A stretch of DNA of 6,502 nucleotides from a virus (taxonomy: Duplodnaviria > Heunggongvirae > Uroviricota > Caudoviricetes): IMG/VR virus record IMGVR_UViG_2778261247_000010; one strand, 5' to 3'. The stretch's first letter is position 1. Every line of letters begins with the position of its first letter. Of the stretch, positions 1 through 6,502 are shown piece by piece. A program made the position numbers and the translations under genes. The notes beneath the pieces were generated by a model. That model ran no database searches. It was not told where the DNA came from and worked only from the letters and a program-made list of their open reading frames with translations.

Positions 1-2142
1 GAAGGCTCCAGACCAGGTACGCTGAATGATTTTCTCGGTGCCATGACGGAAGATGATGTCATGCCGGAGGCATTGCGTCGTTTTGAGGCAATGGTGGAAG
101 AAGTGGCACGCAACGCCGAAGCCGCCTCTCAGAGCGCAGCGGCGGCAAAGAAATCCGAAACTGCAGCGGCATCATCAAAGAACGCGGCGAAAACCTCAGA
201 AACGAATGCAGCTAATAGTGCACAGGCGGCAGCGACCTCAAAGACTGCATCGGCAAACTCCGCGACAGCAGCCAAAAAATCAGAAACCAACGCGAAAAAT
301 AGCGAGACAGCCGCAAAGACGAGCGAAACCAACGCAAAGTCCAGCCAGACGGCAGCGAAAACCAGCGAAACGAATGCCAAAGCCAGTGAAACTGCGGCAA
401 AAAACAGCCAGGTTGCAGCAGCCCAAAGCGAGAGCGCGGCAGCCGGTTCTGCGACTTCAGCAGCTGGATCAGCAACTGCTGCGGCTAACAGCCAGAAAGC
501 TGCGAAGACGAGTGAAACTAACGCAAAGTCCAGCCAGACGGCAGCGAAGACCAGCGAAACGAATGCCAAAGCCAGCGAAACTGCGGCGAAAAACAGCCAG
601 GTTGCAGCAGCCCAAAGCGAGAGCGCGGCAGCTGGTTCTGCAAGCGCGGCGGCTGCTTCTGCCACTGCATCAGCCAACAGTCAAAAAGCGGCAAAAACCA
701 GTGAAACCAATGCAAAGACAAGCGAGACTGCAGCGGCGAACTCGGCGAAAGCATCGGCAGCAAGCCAGACGGCTGCAAAAGCAAGTGAAGACGCAGCCAG
801 AGAGTATGCAAGCCAGGCTGCGGAGCCGTATAAACAAGTATTGCAGCCGCTTCCCGATGTGTGGATACCGTTTAACGATTCACTGGATATGATTACGGGC
901 TTTTCGCCGTCATATAAAAAGATTGTTATTGGTGATGATGAAATAACGATGCCTGGCGATAAGGTTGTAAAGTTTAAACGCGCATCAAAAGCAACTTACA
1001 TTAATAAATCTGGTGTGCTGACAGAGGCTGCCATTGACGAGCCACGATTTGAACGTGATGGCCTGCTTATTGAGGGGCAAAGAACAAACTACATGCTCAA
1101 TTCGGAAAACCCTGCCAGTTGGGGGCGATCGTCAAATATGGATGTTCCCGAAACCGGGAAGGATAGTTTTGGTTTTACCTATGGAAAGTTCGTCTGTAAC
1201 GATTCTCTGATTGGGCAAACCTCAGCCATTAATATGGCATCAATTGCTGCAACAAAGTCAGTTGATGTCTCAGGCTATAATAAATACGTGACAACCTCAT
1301 GTCGTTTTAAAACAGAACTGCAGGTAAGGTTGCGTATCCGGTTTGATAAATATGACGGTAGCGCAACAACTTTTCTTGGTGATGCGTATATTGATACACA
1401 AACGCTTGAAATTAATATGACAGGCGGTGCTGCCTCAAGGATTACAGCGAGAGTCAGAAAGGACGAAGCTACCGGATGGATTTTTGCAGAGGCAACAATT
1501 CAGGCAATTGATGGGGAGTTAAAAATAGGTTCTCAGATACAGTATTCTCCTAAGCAGGGCGGGGCAACCGTATCTGGTGACTATATTTATCTGGCCACCC
1601 CACAAGTAGAAAATGGGCCTTGTGTATCATCTTTTATTATATCAGGAACGACGGCGGCGACCCGCGCAAGCGATATAGTTACAGTTCCCATTAAGAATAA
1701 TCTTTATAATCTTCCTTTTACGGTTCTTTGTGAGGTACATAAGAACTGGTATAAAACGCCAAATGCAGCGCCGCGTGTTTTTGATACCGGCGGTCATCAA
1801 ACCGGAGCGGCTATTATTCTTGGGTTCGGATCTGCGGCAGATGGGCCAGACGGATTTCCTTATTGCGATATTGGAGGAGCTAACAGACGGGTAAACGAAA
1901 ACGCATCGCTTGAAAAAATGGTTATGGGGATGCGTGTAAAATCAGATCAGTCTACGTGCTCAGTAAGTAACGGGCGCATATCCAGCGAAAAAAAGACTAC
2001 GTGGTCCTATATTCAGAACTCTGCAACCATCCGTATTGGAGGCCAGACTACAGCAGGGTCACGTCATTTATTTGGTCATATCAGGAATTTCAGAATATGG
2101 CATAAGGCATTGACTGATGCTCAGGTGGGGGAGTCAATCTAA
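1..2142 (+). CDS. stf: Side tail fibre protein (Stf-like), 5'-partial: Ala/Ser/Thr-rich repeat shaft plus C-terminal LamG/ConA-like lectin-type domain
   Basis: Frame +1 has no stop from base 1 to the first ATG at 43, so the gene very probably starts upstream of the window (translation from base 1: EGSRPGTLNDFLGAMTEDD...). Nt ~43-830 encode a low-complexity A/S/T/K-rich shaft with reiterated KTSETNAK and AAKNSQ motifs typical of phage tail-fibre repeat regions. The C-terminus (...GSRHLFGHIRNFRIWHKALTDAQVGESI) has the characteristic ending of LamG/ConA-like lectin domains (inference). Stop TAA at 2140-2142. Confidence 0.88.
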   Translation, partial: EGSRPGTLNDFLGAMTEDDVMPEALRRFEAMVEEVARNAEAASQSAAAAKKSETAAASSKNAAKTSETNAANSAQAAATSKTASANSATAAKKSETNAKNSETAAKTSETNAKSSQTAAKTSETNAKASETAAKNSQVAAAQSESAAAGSATSAAGSATAAANSQKAAKTSETNAKSSQTAAKTSETNAKASETAAKNSQVAAAQSESAAAGSASAAAASATASANSQKAAKTSETNAKTSETAAANSAKASAASQTAAKASEDAAREYASQAAEPYKQVLQPLPDVWIPFNDSLDMITGFSPSYKKIVIGDDEITMPGDKVVKFKRASKATYINKSGVLTEAAIDEPRFERDGLLIEGQRTNYMLNSENPASWGRSSNMDVPETGKDSFGFTYGKFVCNDSLIGQTSAINMASIAATKSVDVSGYNKYVTTSCRFKTELQVRLRIRFDKYDGSATTFLGDAYIDTQTLEINMTGGAASRITARVRKDEATGWIFAEATIQAIDGELKIGSQIQYSPKQGGATVSGDYIYLATPQVENGPCVSSFIISGTTAATRASDIVTVPIKNNLYNLPFTVLCEVHKNWYKTPNAAPRVFDTGGHQTGAAIILGFGSAADGPDGFPYCDIGGANRRVNENASLEKMVMGMRVKSDQSTCSVSNGRISSEKKTTWSYIQNSATIRIGGQTTAGSRHLFGHIRNFRIWHKALTDAQVGESI
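313..641 (+). repeat. Intragenic in-frame tandem duplication (two ~140-bp copies, period 189 bp) inside the tail-fibre shaft
   Basis: Copy 1 ~313-452 and copy 2 ~502-641 differ at about 7 positions by eye, all at synonymous third-codon positions (agc/agt, acc/act, aaa/aag, gca/gcg, gcc/gct). Both encode the identical 48-aa block AAKTSETNAKSSQTAAKTSETNAKASETAAKNSQVAAAQSESAAAGSA. Confidence 0.9.
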
Positions 2143-2423
2143 TGAAAGATTTAACACTCAAATTTGCAGACAGGGCCGACTTTTCGGCCTTTATGGAGAG
2201 CACTGGCTATTATGATGACGAGTCGATGCAGGATAATATTCTTATTGACGTGATAGGTAACGTGTACAAAGAAACCGGAGAACTGACTGAAGATGGCGAA
2301 CCGGTATGTGTTAAGGAAGACGGATATTTTGTAAACGTGCGCATCATTAATGATGCAAAAAAATCGTCAATATTCGATAAATACGAGGTTGTTGTTGAGC
2401 ATCAACTTCGTGGCTGGATGTGA
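2142..2423 (+). CDS. Hypothetical small acidic protein (93 aa), translationally coupled to the tail-fibre gene; possible fibre accessory or assembly factor
   Basis: ATG at 2142 shares one base with the upstream TAA (cTAATG). SD GGGGGAG at 2127-2133 with 8-nt spacer. Product is D/E-rich with no hydrophobic segment. No family recognised from sequence alone. Stop TGA at 2421-2423 lies 9 bp before the next gene. Confidence 0.7.
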   Translation: MKDLTLKFADRADFSAFMESTGYYDDESMQDNILIDVIGNVYKETGELTEDGEPVCVKEDGYFVNVRIINDAKKSSIFDKYEVVVEHQLRGWM

Positions 2424-2432
2424 GGGAGACAA

Positions 2433-3473
2433 ATGGCTACATCGACAGTAATTCCTGATGACATCAAAACGCTAAAATCCGACGTTAGCAAATTAAAAAA
2501 CGATCAAGGAAGCTACGCAACAAAATCATATGTAGACAGCAAAGATGAAACCGTTGGTGACTGGTCTGCTTCATGGTATCAGCAGGTATTGCCAACTAGC
2601 GGAGCTATATTTGGGAGAAAACTCCGCTCAACTCACAGGACGGCAGGTGTTGAGGATGCGTATTGCGAACTATATCTCAAAAAATGGATAGACAGTCCAG
2701 GTAACGCAATGGCGCGCCTTAACCTGAACGATAACGGGAAAAACATTTGCTGGGACTTTACCAACCTTTATGGCGGTACGATGATTTTTCCCGGTGACAG
2801 CGGATACCTCAAAATGGGTAACTGCCTTATGTCATACAGCAAACGTGGAAGTAACGCGCTTATTAAATTTGATTACACCGACACATTACAGATCAAATAT
2901 GCTAATCATGGGTCAACCATGACATTAACCACACAGGGATCCGCTCACGCTGGCGTAACAACTAGACTATGGGGTAATTCTAGCCGTCCGGTTGTTTATG
3001 AAGTTGGCGTAGATGAGGCTCTGTATATGTTCTACGCACAGAAAACTACCAGCAATACCTACGAATTAACGGTTAACGGCGCGTGCAATGCAAGTGCATT
3101 TAATCAAGGCTCTGACCGGGATCTGAAAGACAATATTCAGGTGATCGATAATGCAACCGACCGCATTCGTAAAATGAACGGCTATACATACACGCTTAAA
3201 GAAAACGGTATGCCTTACGCTGGTGTTATTGCACAAGAAACCCTGGAAGCCATCCCCGAAGCCGTAGGGTCTATGATGAAATATCCAGACGGCGGGAGTG
3301 GATTAGATGGAGAAGAAGGTGAACGGTATTACACAGTAGATTATTCTGGTGTTACTGGCTTGCTTGTTCAGGTAGCCAGAGAGTCGGACGACAGAATAAC
3401 AGCACTGGAAGAAGAAAACGCAGAATTAAGACAAAGATTATCTGCAATTGAGGCGGCGCTTGCGTCTAAATAA
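2433..3473 (+). CDS. Tail fibre/tailspike-like protein with C-terminal self-cleaving intramolecular chaperone domain (peptidase S74-like)
   Basis: SD GAGGGAG at 2422-2428, ATG at 2433. From Ser227 (nt 3111) the sequence G-S-D-R-D-L-K-D-N-I-Q-V-I-D-N-A-T-D-R-I-R-K-M-N-G-Y-T-Y-T-L-K...AGVIAQE...PEAV shows the Ser/Lys dyad spaced five residues apart (S227, K232) and downstream motifs typical of the S74 chaperone domain of endosialidases and L-shaped tail fibres. Ends in a coiled-coil-like segment ITALEEENAELRQRLSAIEAALASK. The N-terminal ~226 aa would be the mature fibre part. Confidence 0.75.
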   Translation: MATSTVIPDDIKTLKSDVSKLKNDQGSYATKSYVDSKDETVGDWSASWYQQVLPTSGAIFGRKLRSTHRTAGVEDAYCELYLKKWIDSPGNAMARLNLNDNGKNICWDFTNLYGGTMIFPGDSGYLKMGNCLMSYSKRGSNALIKFDYTDTLQIKYANHGSTMTLTTQGSAHAGVTTRLWGNSSRPVVYEVGVDEALYMFYAQKTTSNTYELTVNGACNASAFNQGSDRDLKDNIQVIDNATDRIRKMNGYTYTLKENGMPYAGVIAQETLEAIPEAVGSMMKYPDGGSGLDGEEGERYYTVDYSGVTGLLVQVARESDDRITALEEENAELRQRLSAIEAALASK

Positions 3474-3478
3474 TATTA

Positions 3479-3502
3479 AGGGGCCGAGCGCCCCGTTTTA
3501 TT
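3479..3502 (+). terminator. Rho-independent terminator after the fibre operon
   Basis: GC hairpin GGGGC-cgagc-GCCCC (3480-3494) followed by GTTTTATT, immediately after the TAA stop at 3471-3473. Confidence 0.6.
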
Positions 3503-3515
3503 GGGTAGGATGAAA

Positions 3516-3803
3516 ATGGATATAACACCTTTCCTTCATGCACTTTGTGCTGTGGCTGCGCAGCTACTGATTGGTCTTTTTACCGGGAACTGGGCTTACG
3601 GGGCGATAGCCGGTTGTACGTTCTTCATTGCGCGTGAACACACCCAGGCAGAATATCGCTGGATTGAAATGTTCGGGCATGGCAAGCGTATGAATATGCC
3701 GTGGTGGGGCGGTTTTGATCTACGCGCGTGGGATGTAGCAAGCCTGATGGATTTTGCTGTGCCGGTGGTGGCGTGTTTACTTGTATTTATATTTTTTGAA
3801 TAA
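3516..3803 (+). CDS. Small integral membrane protein (~95 aa, three predicted hydrophobic helices); moron-type accessory gene candidate
   Basis: The ORF track begins at TTG 3501 (MGRMKMDIT...). ATG at 3516 preceded by AGGA (3507-3510, 5-nt spacer) is the better supported start; ATG 3510 is also possible. Hydrophobic segments FLHALCAVAAQLLIGLF, AYGAIAGCTFFIA and LMDFAVPVVACLLVFIFF. No family recognised. Stop TAA at 3801-3803. The gene is bracketed by hairpin terminators on both sides. Confidence 0.65.
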   Translation: MDITPFLHALCAVAAQLLIGLFTGNWAYGAIAGCTFFIAREHTQAEYRWIEMFGHGKRMNMPWWGGFDLRAWDVASLMDFAVPVVACLLVFIFFE

Positions 3804-3808
3804 AATTA

Positions 3809-3835
3809 AGACCCCATCTATAACTGATGGGGTCT
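3809..3835. terminator. Bidirectional intrinsic terminator between convergent genes (membrane-protein ORF and sopB)
   Basis: Perfect 10-bp stem AGACCCCATC (3809-3818) / GATGGGGTCT (3826-3835) with 7-nt loop TATAACT. T-rich runs follow on both strands (ATTCTATTTTCT on +; TAATTTTATT on -). Sits between the + strand stop at 3803 and the - strand sopB stop at 3852-3854. Confidence 0.8.
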
Positions 3836-3851
3836 ATTCTATTTTCTGCTA

Positions 3852-4841
3852 TTAGTTATTTTTTACATCGGAAGAATTTCCAAACGCCTCCTCAAGAATA
3901 GATTCAATTTTACTCATTAGGTGCGATGGTATTTTTCTGTTATCTAATTTTAATGTTGTGAAATTTTTCCCATATTTCGCCACAACACCGTCTCCATATT
4001 TCTTTTCCCTTTTCTCTCCATGTGAATTGTTTTTCTCAACAATAATGAAATCATGAAGAGCCTGTATTATTCTTTGCGCATCTAAACTTTCACCTGATTT
4101 TTTCATCCTCAGCAACTGAGATGCAGCATTTTTCATGGCTGCTTCCTGTCCCTGATATGCTTTAAAAAGAGCGTCTCCTGCTCTGGCTGATAACTCACCA
4201 GGATGGTTAAATATTGCCAATATATCTTTAGGTAAACCGGCTGTATTAATACATCGGCTGATAATATTTCTATCCACGCCTTCGGCTTCAGCTAAAGATT
4301 TTACGTTACCGTCAAATTCATGGAGCCTTCGCAGGTATCTTTTCCCCCTTTCATAGGCGCTGATAGGTCTATAGTCGTTGCCTATCTGCGATAACCATTG
4401 CATTTGTTCATCATCTAAATCGCCAATAAGAACACGATAATCGCATCCAGTTATAATGGCTGCTTTACGTCTTCGAGAACCATCAGCTACTTCAACAATA
4501 CCTGACACTTTTCTTGCGAAAGCCGGATTTTGTTGCCCAGAAGTTAGAAAAGATGGAATTAAATCAGCTAGAGAAGATTCATTTAATAAATCTTGATCAC
4601 GCTCATTACCTAGCCATACCATTGTTGCCATTTCTACTTTATCTGCGGGGATCGTCTCTAACTTAAAGTTAACATTACGTCCGCATACTGGCAAAGTTAT
4701 GCTATTACCGGTTAATGAACTCAGTTGACGTTTTAAATCACCAACCATAGGTGATACCGGCTGATGTTCAGGTGCATGATGATTATTACTCATAATGCGA
4801 TTAATATCCGGAGCATTTTTTAGAAGAGAGCGTTGTTTCAT
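3852..4841 (-). CDS. sopB: Plasmid partition protein SopB (ParB family, F-type centromere-binding protein)
   Basis: 329 aa. By-eye similarity to F-plasmid SopB over conserved blocks (GNERDQ.LL.E..L.DLIPSFL.TGQQ.PAF.R.VSG..E.ADGSRRRKAA; GNDYRP.SAYERG.RY; RCINTA.LPK...A.F.HPGELSAR.GDAL.KA). SD GGGAG 8 nt upstream of the start. ATG at 4839-4841 overlaps the sopA stop (ATGA, 4838-4841), implying translational coupling. Confidence 0.95.
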   Translation of the reverse strand: MKQRSLLKNAPDINRIMSNNHHAPEHQPVSPMVGDLKRQLSSLTGNSITLPVCGRNVNFKLETIPADKVEMATMVWLGNERDQDLLNESSLADLIPSFLTSGQQNPAFARKVSGIVEVADGSRRRKAAIITGCDYRVLIGDLDDEQMQWLSQIGNDYRPISAYERGKRYLRRLHEFDGNVKSLAEAEGVDRNIISRCINTAGLPKDILAIFNHPGELSARAGDALFKAYQGQEAAMKNAASQLLRMKKSGESLDAQRIIQALHDFIIVEKNNSHGEKREKKYGDGVVAKYGKNFTTLKLDNRKIPSHLMSKIESILEEAFGNSSDVKNN

Positions 4842-6007
4842 TCTTCGTTCTCCCAGCGAGGTTTTATTAGATCATCAAAAATTTCTCGACAAACAGGGTC
4901 CCATATAGAGACGGCATTTCTCCATGCATTAAGTGTTGAACGCTGGTTTGCCGCTTGTTCAAATACTGTTCGCATTTTTATCTGACCTTTACCTACTTCA
5001 TCGGTAACGCGTACAACCTGACGTAATACCATTGATCCCCATGTATTTCTTATTTGCTCTTCCATCCATCGTGATTGATTTCCTGTAGTGAGACTATATT
5101 TAGTCAGAAGCAAGCGAACGGTCGGCTCAAATCCGCCTAGGTCAACGCTTTCTAGGAGATCGAGAAGCATTGTGAAAAACTGTAGAACAGAGGCGTAATC
5201 AAATAATTCTGCAGGGGTAGCAACAACGATAACGTCAGCTGCGCAAACAACGTTAATGGTTCCTGTACCGAGGTTTGGAGCACTATCTATAACGATAACA
5301 TCGTAGTTATCCCAAACTGATTCTATAGCTGCGCGTAGCATCAGGTGAGGAGGGTGAGGCAATTTACCCTGAGCATGATATTGCATGAGATCTGTTTCTA
5401 TACGGTGTAAAGCTAGGCAGCTAGGAATAATGTCCAGTCCAGGCCAGCATGTTGGTTTTATAGCATATTCAGCGTTATCGCGTTCGCCCAAGTAAAATGG
5501 CAGTAAAGTATCCTCGGCATGTATATGTAAATCAGGTACATAACCGTGATACATGGAGGCTGTTCCCTGAGGATCGTTACCTTCAACTAAAAGAACACGA
5601 TGACCTTGTAATGCTAGCCATTGTGCCTGATGTACTGCAGACGATGTTTTATAAACTCCGCCTTTGTGTGACATAACAGCAAGCACAACTGGGTTTTTAT
5701 CTTGTGGCCGTTGGTTTGGGTTGCCAAAAACAGCTCGCATACTATTGATTTGATCTATGGTATAACCGGCACGACGTTCAACTCTTCCTCTCATTTCAAA
5801 GTCAGGTGCAGGTAAACGCCCGTTCTTCTCAGCATCTCTTATTGCTTGAGGAGTTACACCAATTAAATCTGCTACTTCAGTTATCCCCCATCTACGCGTG
5901 ATACGCCGAGCTTCAGGACTATCATCACCGAATTGAGCTATAGCAATTGCTTGGGTCATTTCTTGACCGCGCGTAACACAATCTTGTAATAACTTTTTCA
6001 AAGACAT
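4838..6007 (-). CDS. sopA: Plasmid partition ATPase SopA (type Ia ParA with N-terminal HTH autoregulatory extension)
   Basis: 389 aa. Deviant Walker A KGGVYKTS, A' region VLLVEGNDPQGTASMYHG, Walker B DVIVIDSAPNLG. N-terminal region ...AIAIAQFGDDSPEARRITRRWGITEVADLIGVTPQAIRDAEKNGRLP... is near-colinear with F SopA as recalled. SD GGAG (minus strand, + coordinates 6016-6019) 8 nt before the ATG at 6007. Confidence 0.96.
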   Translation of the reverse strand: MSLKKLLQDCVTRGQEMTQAIAIAQFGDDSPEARRITRRWGITEVADLIGVTPQAIRDAEKNGRLPAPDFEMRGRVERRAGYTIDQINSMRAVFGNPNQRPQDKNPVVLAVMSHKGGVYKTSSAVHQAQWLALQGHRVLLVEGNDPQGTASMYHGYVPDLHIHAEDTLLPFYLGERDNAEYAIKPTCWPGLDIIPSCLALHRIETDLMQYHAQGKLPHPPHLMLRAAIESVWDNYDVIVIDSAPNLGTGTINVVCAADVIVVATPAELFDYASVLQFFTMLLDLLESVDLGGFEPTVRLLLTKYSLTTGNQSRWMEEQIRNTWGSMVLRQVVRVTDEVGKGQIKMRTVFEQAANQRSTLNAWRNAVSIWDPVCREIFDDLIKPRWENEE

Positions 6008-6028
6008 ACTGTCATCTCCAGCTTATAA

Positions 6029-6106
6029 CTTTGCTTAATAATTATTGCTTTGCATATTTCTAGCAAATTGACATAGAAAAAGCAAAGTAAAACAAAAAAG
6101 GCAAAG
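6029..6106 (-). promoter_or_regulatory. sopAB promoter/operator: four CTTTGC hexamers (SopA autoregulatory motif) in dyad arrangement
   Basis: CTTTGC on + at 6029-6034 and 6048-6053; CTTTGC on - (GCAAAG on +) at 6082-6087 and 6101-6106. Spacing is 19 bp within each pair and the whole set is exactly symmetric about 6067/6068. Candidate sigma70 hexamers on the minus strand lie among them (TTGCTA at 6061-6066 as -35; an A/T hexamer around 6038-6043 as -10); exact hexamers uncertain. In F, SopA represses sopAB through repeated CTTTGC motifs overlapping the promoter (established knowledge). Confidence 0.55.
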
Positions 6107-6294
6107 ACGAAGATTTGAACAAAATCATCTTTTGTTTTATCCCTTAAATGCAAAAAAAAACAACGACAAGATCATAACAAATTGATAATAAAGGATTTTT
6201 TAAAAGAAAGGAAATCGTATAAAACTAGTGAAACATGATGAAAATCATCAATGAGATACGTTTCCTCTATTTATTCTCCTAATCCTCACCAACA

Positions 6295-6437
6295 AAAGAA
6301 CACAATCAAAGATCGTAAAACAACAATAATAATTCACACAAAATAAAGAACACAAATACAGAAAACAACAACACAATAAAAACAAGAGAACACAAGCTAT
6401 AAATATTACACCAATAGAGAACACTAATCAAGAACAT
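6295..6437 (+). repeat. Array of phased GAACAC(A) direct repeats in an A+C-rich tract flanking the telomere-resolution palindrome (candidate protelomerase or accessory binding sites)
   Basis: GAACACAA at 6298-6305, 6348-6355 and 6388-6395; GAACAC at 6419-6424; GAACAT at 6432-6437, the last inside the palindrome arm. Start-to-start spacing is 50, 40, 31 and 13 bp. The + strand of ~6288-6426 is roughly 80% A+C by eye. Confidence 0.7.
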
Positions 6438-6502
6438 ATCAGCACATAATTTCCCATTATACGCGCGTATAATGGGAAATTATGTGCTGATATGTTCTTG
6501 AT
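6427..6502. other. Telomere resolution site (tos/telRL-like protelomerase target): perfect 76-bp palindrome
   Basis: Arms 6427-6464 (ATCAAGAACATATCAGCACATAATTTCCCATTATACGC) and 6465-6502 are exact reverse complements, centred on ACGCGCGT. The core TATCAGCACAtAATTtCCCATTATACGCGCGTATAATGG closely matches the N15 telRL as I recall it, with the central telO-like segment identical. The palindrome reaches the last base of the window. Confidence 0.8.

Follow-up and report, generated by a model that had tools for sequence, protein, structure and literature searches.

The GAACAC repeats at positions 6288 to 6437 of the IMG/VR virus record IMGVR_UViG_2778261247_000010 (Caudoviricetes), a stretch of 6,502 nucleotides that we refer to as the window, are likely to make up the sop-side half of an N15-type telomere site (tos), with the copies of the outer arm of its palindrome serving as putative low-affinity sites for the protelomerase. 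The array lies against the telRL palindrome and consists of four decayed tandem copies of a unit of about 34 nucleotides, all directed at the palindrome, the unit being an extended telRL outer arm of the form AGAACAC-N6-AGAACAY-N2-CAGCACAYAAT. Judged by their sequence, the repeats are degenerate copies of the outer-arm motif L3/R3, and they are oriented like L3. The locus, in a little-described relative of N15, is new, while the accessory-repeat architecture of tos is known.

The exact hexamer GAACAC occurs at 6298, 6348, 6388 and 6419, always on the + strand, and the copy at 6432, which abuts or overlaps the telRL outer arm, reads GAACAT. The earlier note on this DNA, made from the letters of the window alone, had counted five GAACAC(A) copies; its positions and its spacings of 50, 40, 31 and 13 bp are correct, but four of the copies are exact, three alone have the form GAACACA, and two further copies had been missed, CAACACAAT at 6369 to 6377 and GAAACATGAT at 6230 to 6239, the latter outside the coordinates that it gave. 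The strand skew that it described is borne out as well, the A+C fraction of 6288 to 6437 being 0.800. When the local A+C-rich flank (6270 to 6437) was shuffled 20,000 times with dinucleotides preserved, GAACAC was expected 0.19 times against four times observed (about 20-fold), and none of the shuffles reached four. A look-elsewhere test on any 6-mer of the same flank was weak (P = 0.18), because poly-A-type words dominate the shuffles of such a sequence.

The genome-wide and cross-lineage comparisons are stronger evidence than these local statistics. The genome of Escherichia phage PhiR46_1 (PV340565.1), to which positions 2093 to 6475 of the window are 98.5% identical, contains GAACAC 25 times in the 45.7 kb outside the telomere site, counting both strands, which is the chance level, against four times in about 170 nucleotides here. 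A motif equally dense throughout the replicon, which the earlier note had named as the sign of a compositional artefact, was thus not found. The core AACACAA has seven inward-pointing copies at the telomere flanks of PhiR46_1 and two in the other 45.7 kb, neither it nor AGAACAC is enriched elsewhere in the replicon, and five of the six genomic copies of AACACAAT are at the telomere site, two on the left (+ strand) and three on the right (- strand).

The unit structure is supported by two internal alignments. Positions 6280 to 6329 align with 6330 to 6379 at 70% identity over 50 nucleotides (repeat D1; local-shuffle P = 0.001), and positions 6342 to 6375 align with 6413 to 6446, i.e. into the telRL outer arm and L3, with 26 of 34 nucleotides identical (76%; repeat D2; local-shuffle P = 0.0045). 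The spacings of 50, 40 and 31 bp are unit lengths and that of 13 bp is the spacing within a unit, so that the gradation which the earlier note had taken for a special feature comes down to the unequal lengths of four decayed tandem units. The leading box of the outermost unit, AGAACACAAT, is one mismatch away from the N15 L3 core AGCACACAAT. We also built a position weight matrix from the true L3 and R3 boxes of 19 loci only and scanned the whole PhiR46_1 genome (46.3 kb) with it; five flank boxes, all pointing inward, are among the top 30 matches, while the telomere region amounts to 1% of the genome. On the left arm of the near-identical phage-form record OY754439.1, AACA[ACT] cores are found 13 times on the + strand and not once on the - strand.

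Outside the window, a lone, near-perfect outer-arm box, TAACAGCACATAAT, lies on the - strand of PhiR46_1 at 38903 to 38918, the start of the lom gene; it includes the exact 13-mer AAATTATGTGCTG and scores 20.3 with the same matrix, compared with 21.2 and 20.5 for the true boxes. This box may be due to chance or may be an orphan protelomerase half-site.

The earlier note had taken the array to be one-sided, but this impression is an artefact of the window edge. In the phage-form records OY754439.1 and PhiR46_1, which are 99 to 100% identical over the queried region, a mirrored set stands on the telN arm, with inverted AACACAAT on the - strand at +74, +99 and +156. The comparison was extended to 19 phage-form loci, collected via the telO core and from annotated records and belonging to the lineages of N15, phiKO2, Citrobacter, Enterobacter and the window. 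Across these lineages divergence is far stronger in the spacers than in the boxes, whose positions are constant within 1 to 3 bp, as shown in Table 1. Column conservation is 0.754 in the boxes and 0.638 in the spacers, a difference reached by 4 of 147 circular shifts. The flank boxes match the outer arm in each lineage, and their sequence is uniform inside each genome yet differs between lineages, being GAACAC in N15 and the window, TAACAC in phiKO2 and Citrobacter, and GTAACCC in PY54; selection by a lineage-specific reader is therefore implied.

Table 1. Features of the telomere site and its neighbourhood; coordinates are those of the window, offsets count from the palindrome centre, and loci are those of the 19-locus comparison
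Feature	Sequence	Coordinates	Strand	Offset	Loci	Remarks
sopB		3852..4841	-			Pfam SoPB_HTH; annotation of matching records
sopA (ParA-type partition ATPase; gene adjoining the array)		4838..6007	-			Pfam AAA_31, CbiA; annotation of matching records
Distal conserved box	GAAACATGAT	6230..6239	+	-233	13/19	Including N15 (GCGAACATGCTG)
Unit 1 (outermost)	AAGAACAC-AATCAA-AGATCGT-AA-AACAACAATAA	6296..6329	+			50-nt repeat D1
Unit 1 leading box	AGAACACAAT	6297-6306	+	-166	14/19	Box at -166/-167, including N15
Unit 2	AAGAACAC-AAATAC-AGAAAAC-AA-CAACACAATAA	6346..6379	+			Repeat D2
Unit 2 boxes		6347-6356, 6368-6377	+	-116, -95	19/19 (box at about -117)	
Unit 3 (most decayed)	GAGAACAC-AAGCTA-TAAATAT-TA-CACCAATAG	6386..6416	+			In-register listing; D4 repeat AACAAGAGAACACAA
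Unit 3 leading box		6387-6396	+	-76		
Unit 4 (functional outer arm)	GAGAACAC-TAATCA-AGAACAT-AT-CAGCACATAAT	6417..6450	+			Contains L3
Unit 4 boxes		6418-6427, 6431-6440	+	-45, -32	15/19, 12/19	
L3 motif		6440-6450	+			Top match of the matrix built from L3/R3 boxes
telRL palindrome, left half	ATCAGCACATAATTTCCCATTATACGC	6438..6464	.			Homologous to annotated telRL of N15 and phiKO2
Mirror of 6427-6464		6465..6502	.			38/38 complementary to window end
AACA[CT] box				-166	14/19	
AACA[CT] box				-117	19/19	
AACA[CT] box				-45	15/19	
AACA[CT] box				-32	12/19	
AACA[CT] box				+33	19/19	
AACA[CT] box				+75	18/19	
AACA[CT] box				+99	19/19	
AACA[CT] box				+156	19/19	

Two further observations concern the extent and symmetry of the site. 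The distal box GAAACATGAT lies about 65 bp farther out than the last array box, beyond the limits usually given for tos (roughly 310 bp). On the telN arm, a pair of boxes GAACAA/GAACAT at +33 and +46 (3598 to 3618 of OY754439.1), 13 bp apart and present in 19 and 15 of the 19 loci, respectively, is in 13-bp register with the pair at -45 and -32 across telRL and makes the site asymmetric.

The window as a whole belongs to a linear phage-plasmid of E. coli that resembles N15 and is close to PhiR46_1, and it represents the sopBA arm. The queried stretch 5900 to 6475 is identical to PhiR46_1 through the end of that record, and the last 600 bases also match many E. coli "plasmids" at 82 to 99.8%. 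Besides sopA and sopB, the window contains tail-fibre genes according to Pfam. The palindrome carries the conserved telO core CCCATTATACGCGCGTATAATGGG, as in N15 and phiKO2, is about 90% identical over roughly 60 nucleotides to the annotated telRL of N15, and its match overlaps the annotated telRL of phiKO2; its centre, and hence the hairpin tip, lies between 6464 and 6465. The perfect mirror at the end of the window extends 11 nucleotides beyond the true telRL palindrome, and the true right arms in phage-form records (OY754439.1, L033 and PhiR46_1) diverge after the equivalent of 6491. Instead of the true telN arm, positions 6465 to 6502 thus represent either a telLL-type replicated-telomere junction or the product of an assembly that read through the hairpin, and the window therefore holds the sop arm only. 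At least one record listed as circular in PLSDB (NZ_CP101203.1, 14.5 kb) is made up of two inverted, perfectly matching copies of the sop arm, and several records of 61 to 92 kb with four matching places resemble this case. In phage-form relatives telRL sits between sopA and the protelomerase gene, which starts at +192 (telN start at +191 to +193 in all loci compared), and the TelN of PhiR46_1-type phages is 77% identical to that of N15.

Just upstream of the sopA start (6007), four CTTTGC hexamers are found within 80 nucleotides (6029 to 6034 and 6048 to 6053 on the + strand, 6082 to 6087 and 6101 to 6106 on the - strand), with a promoter-like pair TTGCTA…TAATTA among them. The cluster resembles the operator hexamers for SopA in the sop promoter of the F plasmid.

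Under the explanation that we favour, each box would bind, with low affinity, the protelomerase domain by which the L3/R3 motif is read, so that extra TelN could load beside the catalytic dimer and remain over the sub-telomeric 170 to 230 bp of the hairpin end. Likely uses would be a higher local enzyme concentration leading to prompt resolution of replicated telomeres, help in capping the hairpin, and repression of telomere-proximal promoters; the boxes would be accessory and not catalytic. The literature offers a framework for this. The natural N15 TelN target measures about 310 bp whereas recombination needs no more than the 56-bp telRL, the repeats L1/L2 and R1/R2 being degenerate versions of L3/R3, and the L3/R3 motif is the presumed contact of a C-terminal domain of the protelomerase (PMC12624138, 2025 EMBO J, summarising Deneke et al. 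2000, 2002). In PY54, the palindrome without flanks works only partly and the flanks aid processing in vivo (PMC3540006).

Several points weigh against this explanation. Occupancy of the boxes by protelomerase is a prediction, and even for N15 the binding of all repeats by the TelN domain CTD1, as a protective assembly, has been called no more than "conceivable", CTD1 itself being not essential for end protection (PMC12624138). [quoted passage not shown] Most left-arm boxes here match the core only, just two (at about -172 and -134) being in the top 30 of the matrix scan. The +33/+46 pair is oriented as the left-arm boxes and not mirrored, which would not be expected from a TelN model that is purely symmetric. 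Finally, the lineages compared are linked loci, so that positional conservation partly reflects shared ancestry.

The asymmetry of that pair, which is direct and not mirrored, is also one of the observations in line with the boxes being operators or promoter elements of another phage or host regulator of telomere-proximal transcription, acting on a distal leftward sop promoter and on the telN promoter, rather than protelomerase loading sites; we regard this as rather unlikely. In every lineage the promoter-proximal box of the telN arm overlaps an extended -10-like element, TG-n-TACGAT, about 30 nucleotides upstream of the telN start, and PY54 has GGGTTACGATAA at the same place; the overlap also fits autoregulation by the protelomerase. 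A leftward promoter-like TTGACT-18-CATAAT spans the right flank and R3, and in N15 a leftward CTGATA-16-TATGAT overlaps L3. A sigma-70 consensus scan, however, detected no promoter-like site within 6290 to 6436 on either strand, and overall it returned fewer sites than shuffles did, so that promoters inside the array were discarded. Since AGAACAC and AACACAA are unenriched elsewhere, the telomere site would be the sole target of such a regulator, which fits TelN best, and the boxes copy the outer-arm motif of TelN, as they do with another sequence in PY54. Dorokhov, Lane and Ravin (2003) reportedly described a second sop promoter of N15 that lies close to the telomere site and is repressed by TelN, and if this is so the regulator would merge with the protelomerase explanation. 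The leftward TTGACT-18-CATAAT site is located on the - strand of OY754439.1 at 3580 to 3609, with the -35 element in the right flank and the -10 element in R3, and reads leftwards through telO in the direction of sopA; it would be present only as long as telRL is uncut, in the phage form, and telomere resolution would abolish it. The same stretch includes a terminator-like hairpin, GGAAC-N10-GTTCC.

A functionless relic, in which old tandem duplications of the telRL outer arm decay neutrally in a non-coding spacer, would account for the low identity to the L3-containing unit and between the two 50-nucleotide copies, for a third unit that is scarcely recognisable, for the degeneration in the window of the N15 boxes at -154, -106 and -64, and for flanks that N15 and P840 do not need for processing. 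We nevertheless hold it to be improbable, given that the boxes persist at the same offsets though the spacers have diverged far more, that conservation is higher in the box columns than in the spacer columns, and that a box sequence specific to the lineage and uniform in the genome implies a lineage-specific reader. Helical phasing on one DNA face or intrinsic bending, possibly as an anchor for SopB or the nucleoid, was the special reading of the earlier note and appears very improbable. The tract is indeed very A-rich, it adjoins sopA, and an assumed 10.0 bp per turn brings the first four exact copies into phase (resultant R = 0.96). The fifth copy, however, is then roughly 110 to 145 degrees off the other four, and 14% of random placements do as well as the best R over periods of 10.0 to 11.0. 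With 10.5 bp per turn, R falls between 0.44 and 0.61, which is not significant (R = 0.54 for the five sites, Rayleigh p of about 0.25). Relatives have other spacings and are unphased (R of 0.16 to 0.75), and the A-tracts lack a 10- to 11-bp periodicity in a periodogram (P = 0.68). As for SopB, no match to a sopC-like motif, a 14- to 16-bp inverted repeat of the GGGACCACGGTCCC type, was found in the window even with three mismatches. The inverted repeat GCGACCACGGTCGC has five dispersed copies in PhiR46_1 (7930, 10375, 14753, 17795 and 18015), which are probably N15-style dispersed SopB centromere sites; all five are distant, and none like them is present in the window, so that neither a SopB centromere nor the proposed anchoring is retained. 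Scarcely credible, in our judgement, is a compositional artefact of the A+C-rich tract or a set of codons in the open reading frame of 58 amino acids that spans the array (6248 to 6424, - strand). The any-6-mer shuffles and the 80% A+C content would suit it; against it stand the GAACAC-specific shuffles, the confinement of the motif to the telomere site genome-wide and the positions conserved across lineages. The product of the reading frame is of low complexity (Cys/Leu/Phe) and not conserved as a protein, with out-of-step changes between close relatives and many stops in N15. A structured RNA was likewise rejected, since the matches that Rfam returned at a permissive E-value were only generic hairpins (miRNA models) at the palindrome, all scoring under the gathering cut-offs, and the array itself had none. 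Replication iterons were also considered and rejected: on the linear map, about 38 kb separate the primase/RepA-like gene of PhiR46_1 (4314 to 8309) from this end, and the boxes occur only at the telomere site.

Beyond protelomerase loading as such, the boxes on both arms might form a scaffold for a precisely spaced complex of several protelomerases on each hairpin end. The fixed box positions, the 13-bp pairs, the common register of +33/+46 and -45/-32 and the distal box at -233 allow this, although we consider it doubtful. The AGAACAY boxes at -47 to -27, beyond the 56-bp telRL, could then be read by some part of TelN, for instance the C-terminal domain that is absent from the TelK crystal, or by a partner. 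If true, the scaffold would be the physical basis of the higher-order end cap speculated on in recent work on TelN and Mre11-Rad50. The earlier note was right in tying the array to the telomere site and in relating it to the flanking repeats of N15 tos, of which it holds positional homologues, whereas the features that it called special did not stand; the result thus removes a false lead, since the array is neither helically phased nor one-sided and graded and has no link to SopB, and the feature can be filed under N15 tos architecture. Its modest value is comparative, the box positions being conserved across N15, phiKO2, Citrobacter, Enterobacter and PhiR46_1-type phage-plasmids while the PY54 repeats follow the outer arm of PY54 itself. 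The comparison offers sequence-level evidence that the accessory repeats are under selection and read by the cognate protelomerase, a point that stayed a conjecture in recent work on the shielding of hairpin ends from SbcCD by TelN, and the unit model yields exact mutagenesis targets for capping, resolution kinetics and sop/telN regulation.

The closest known system is the tos of N15, of which the boxes, as far as alignment can tell, are homologues: they correspond, as a set, to the L1/L2/L3 repeats, an already-known kind of accessory repeat. Both sites occupy the same place between sopA and telN, have the same telO core and the same inward orientation, and share the box motif AGAACAY/AACACAAT, which closely resembles the L3 motif CAGCACACAAT as a near copy. 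The comparison with the flanks of N15, phiKO2 and PY54, which the earlier note had proposed, yielded positional homologues in N15 (shared offsets -167/-166, -119/-116 and -32); the common offsets are -167, -117/-119, -32, +33, +75, +99 and +156, with the telN start at +191 to +193. The primers used for cloning a 0.4-kb N15 tos (PMC2847241) bracket exactly the outermost boxes mapped here, whereas the GenBank records of N15 annotate the 56-bp repeat alone. The two sites differ in that the window keeps the boxes at -166, -116, -95, -76, -45 and -32 while those of N15 at -154, -106 and -64 are degenerate here, in that L3 reads CACATAAT here and CACACAAT in N15, and in that the spacers are much more diverged than the boxes; the TelN proteins are 77% identical. 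Between -170 and -30, N15 has eight AACA[CT] boxes on this arm and the window six, so that the array is not unusually long, contrary to what the earlier note had suggested.

In the Klebsiella phage phiKO2, with its protelomerase TelK, and in related Klebsiella and Citrobacter phage-plasmids, the architecture is the same and the offsets -120, -45, +33, +75, +99 and +156 are found, but the boxes read CATAACACAAT, with T for G before AACAC, throughout each genome. The palindrome of Yersinia phage PY54 (Hertwig et al.; PMC10612081, PMC3540006) is also flanked on both sides by near copies of its own outer arm, AGT(C/A)ACCTAT, in the form of GTAACCC/GGGTTAC repeats, among which the one closest to tel overlaps with a -10-like element, TACGAT. 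PY54 differs in having this other motif, another palindrome of 42 bp, and an extra gene, icd, between the partition genes and the site. That its flank repeats follow its own outer arm is the best sequence-level argument that the reader of the outer arm, i.e. the cognate protelomerase, also reads the flanks. In the PY54 record, the stretch 4290 to 4620 contains three copies of a 25-nucleotide repeat at an exact spacing of 101 bp (4291, 4392 and 4493), which straddle the palindrome.

A wider parallel is provided by the arm sites of lambda attP and the accessory sequences of Xer recombination, where extra sites for the tyrosine recombinase or its partners flank the catalytic core and build a higher-order complex while being dispensable for the chemistry. 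By this analogy, the accessory sites of the telomere would differ in copying part of the core half-site instead of presenting a distinct motif to a separate domain. No bending proteins would be implicated, and the reaction that the boxes would assist makes hairpins without strand exchange between partners.

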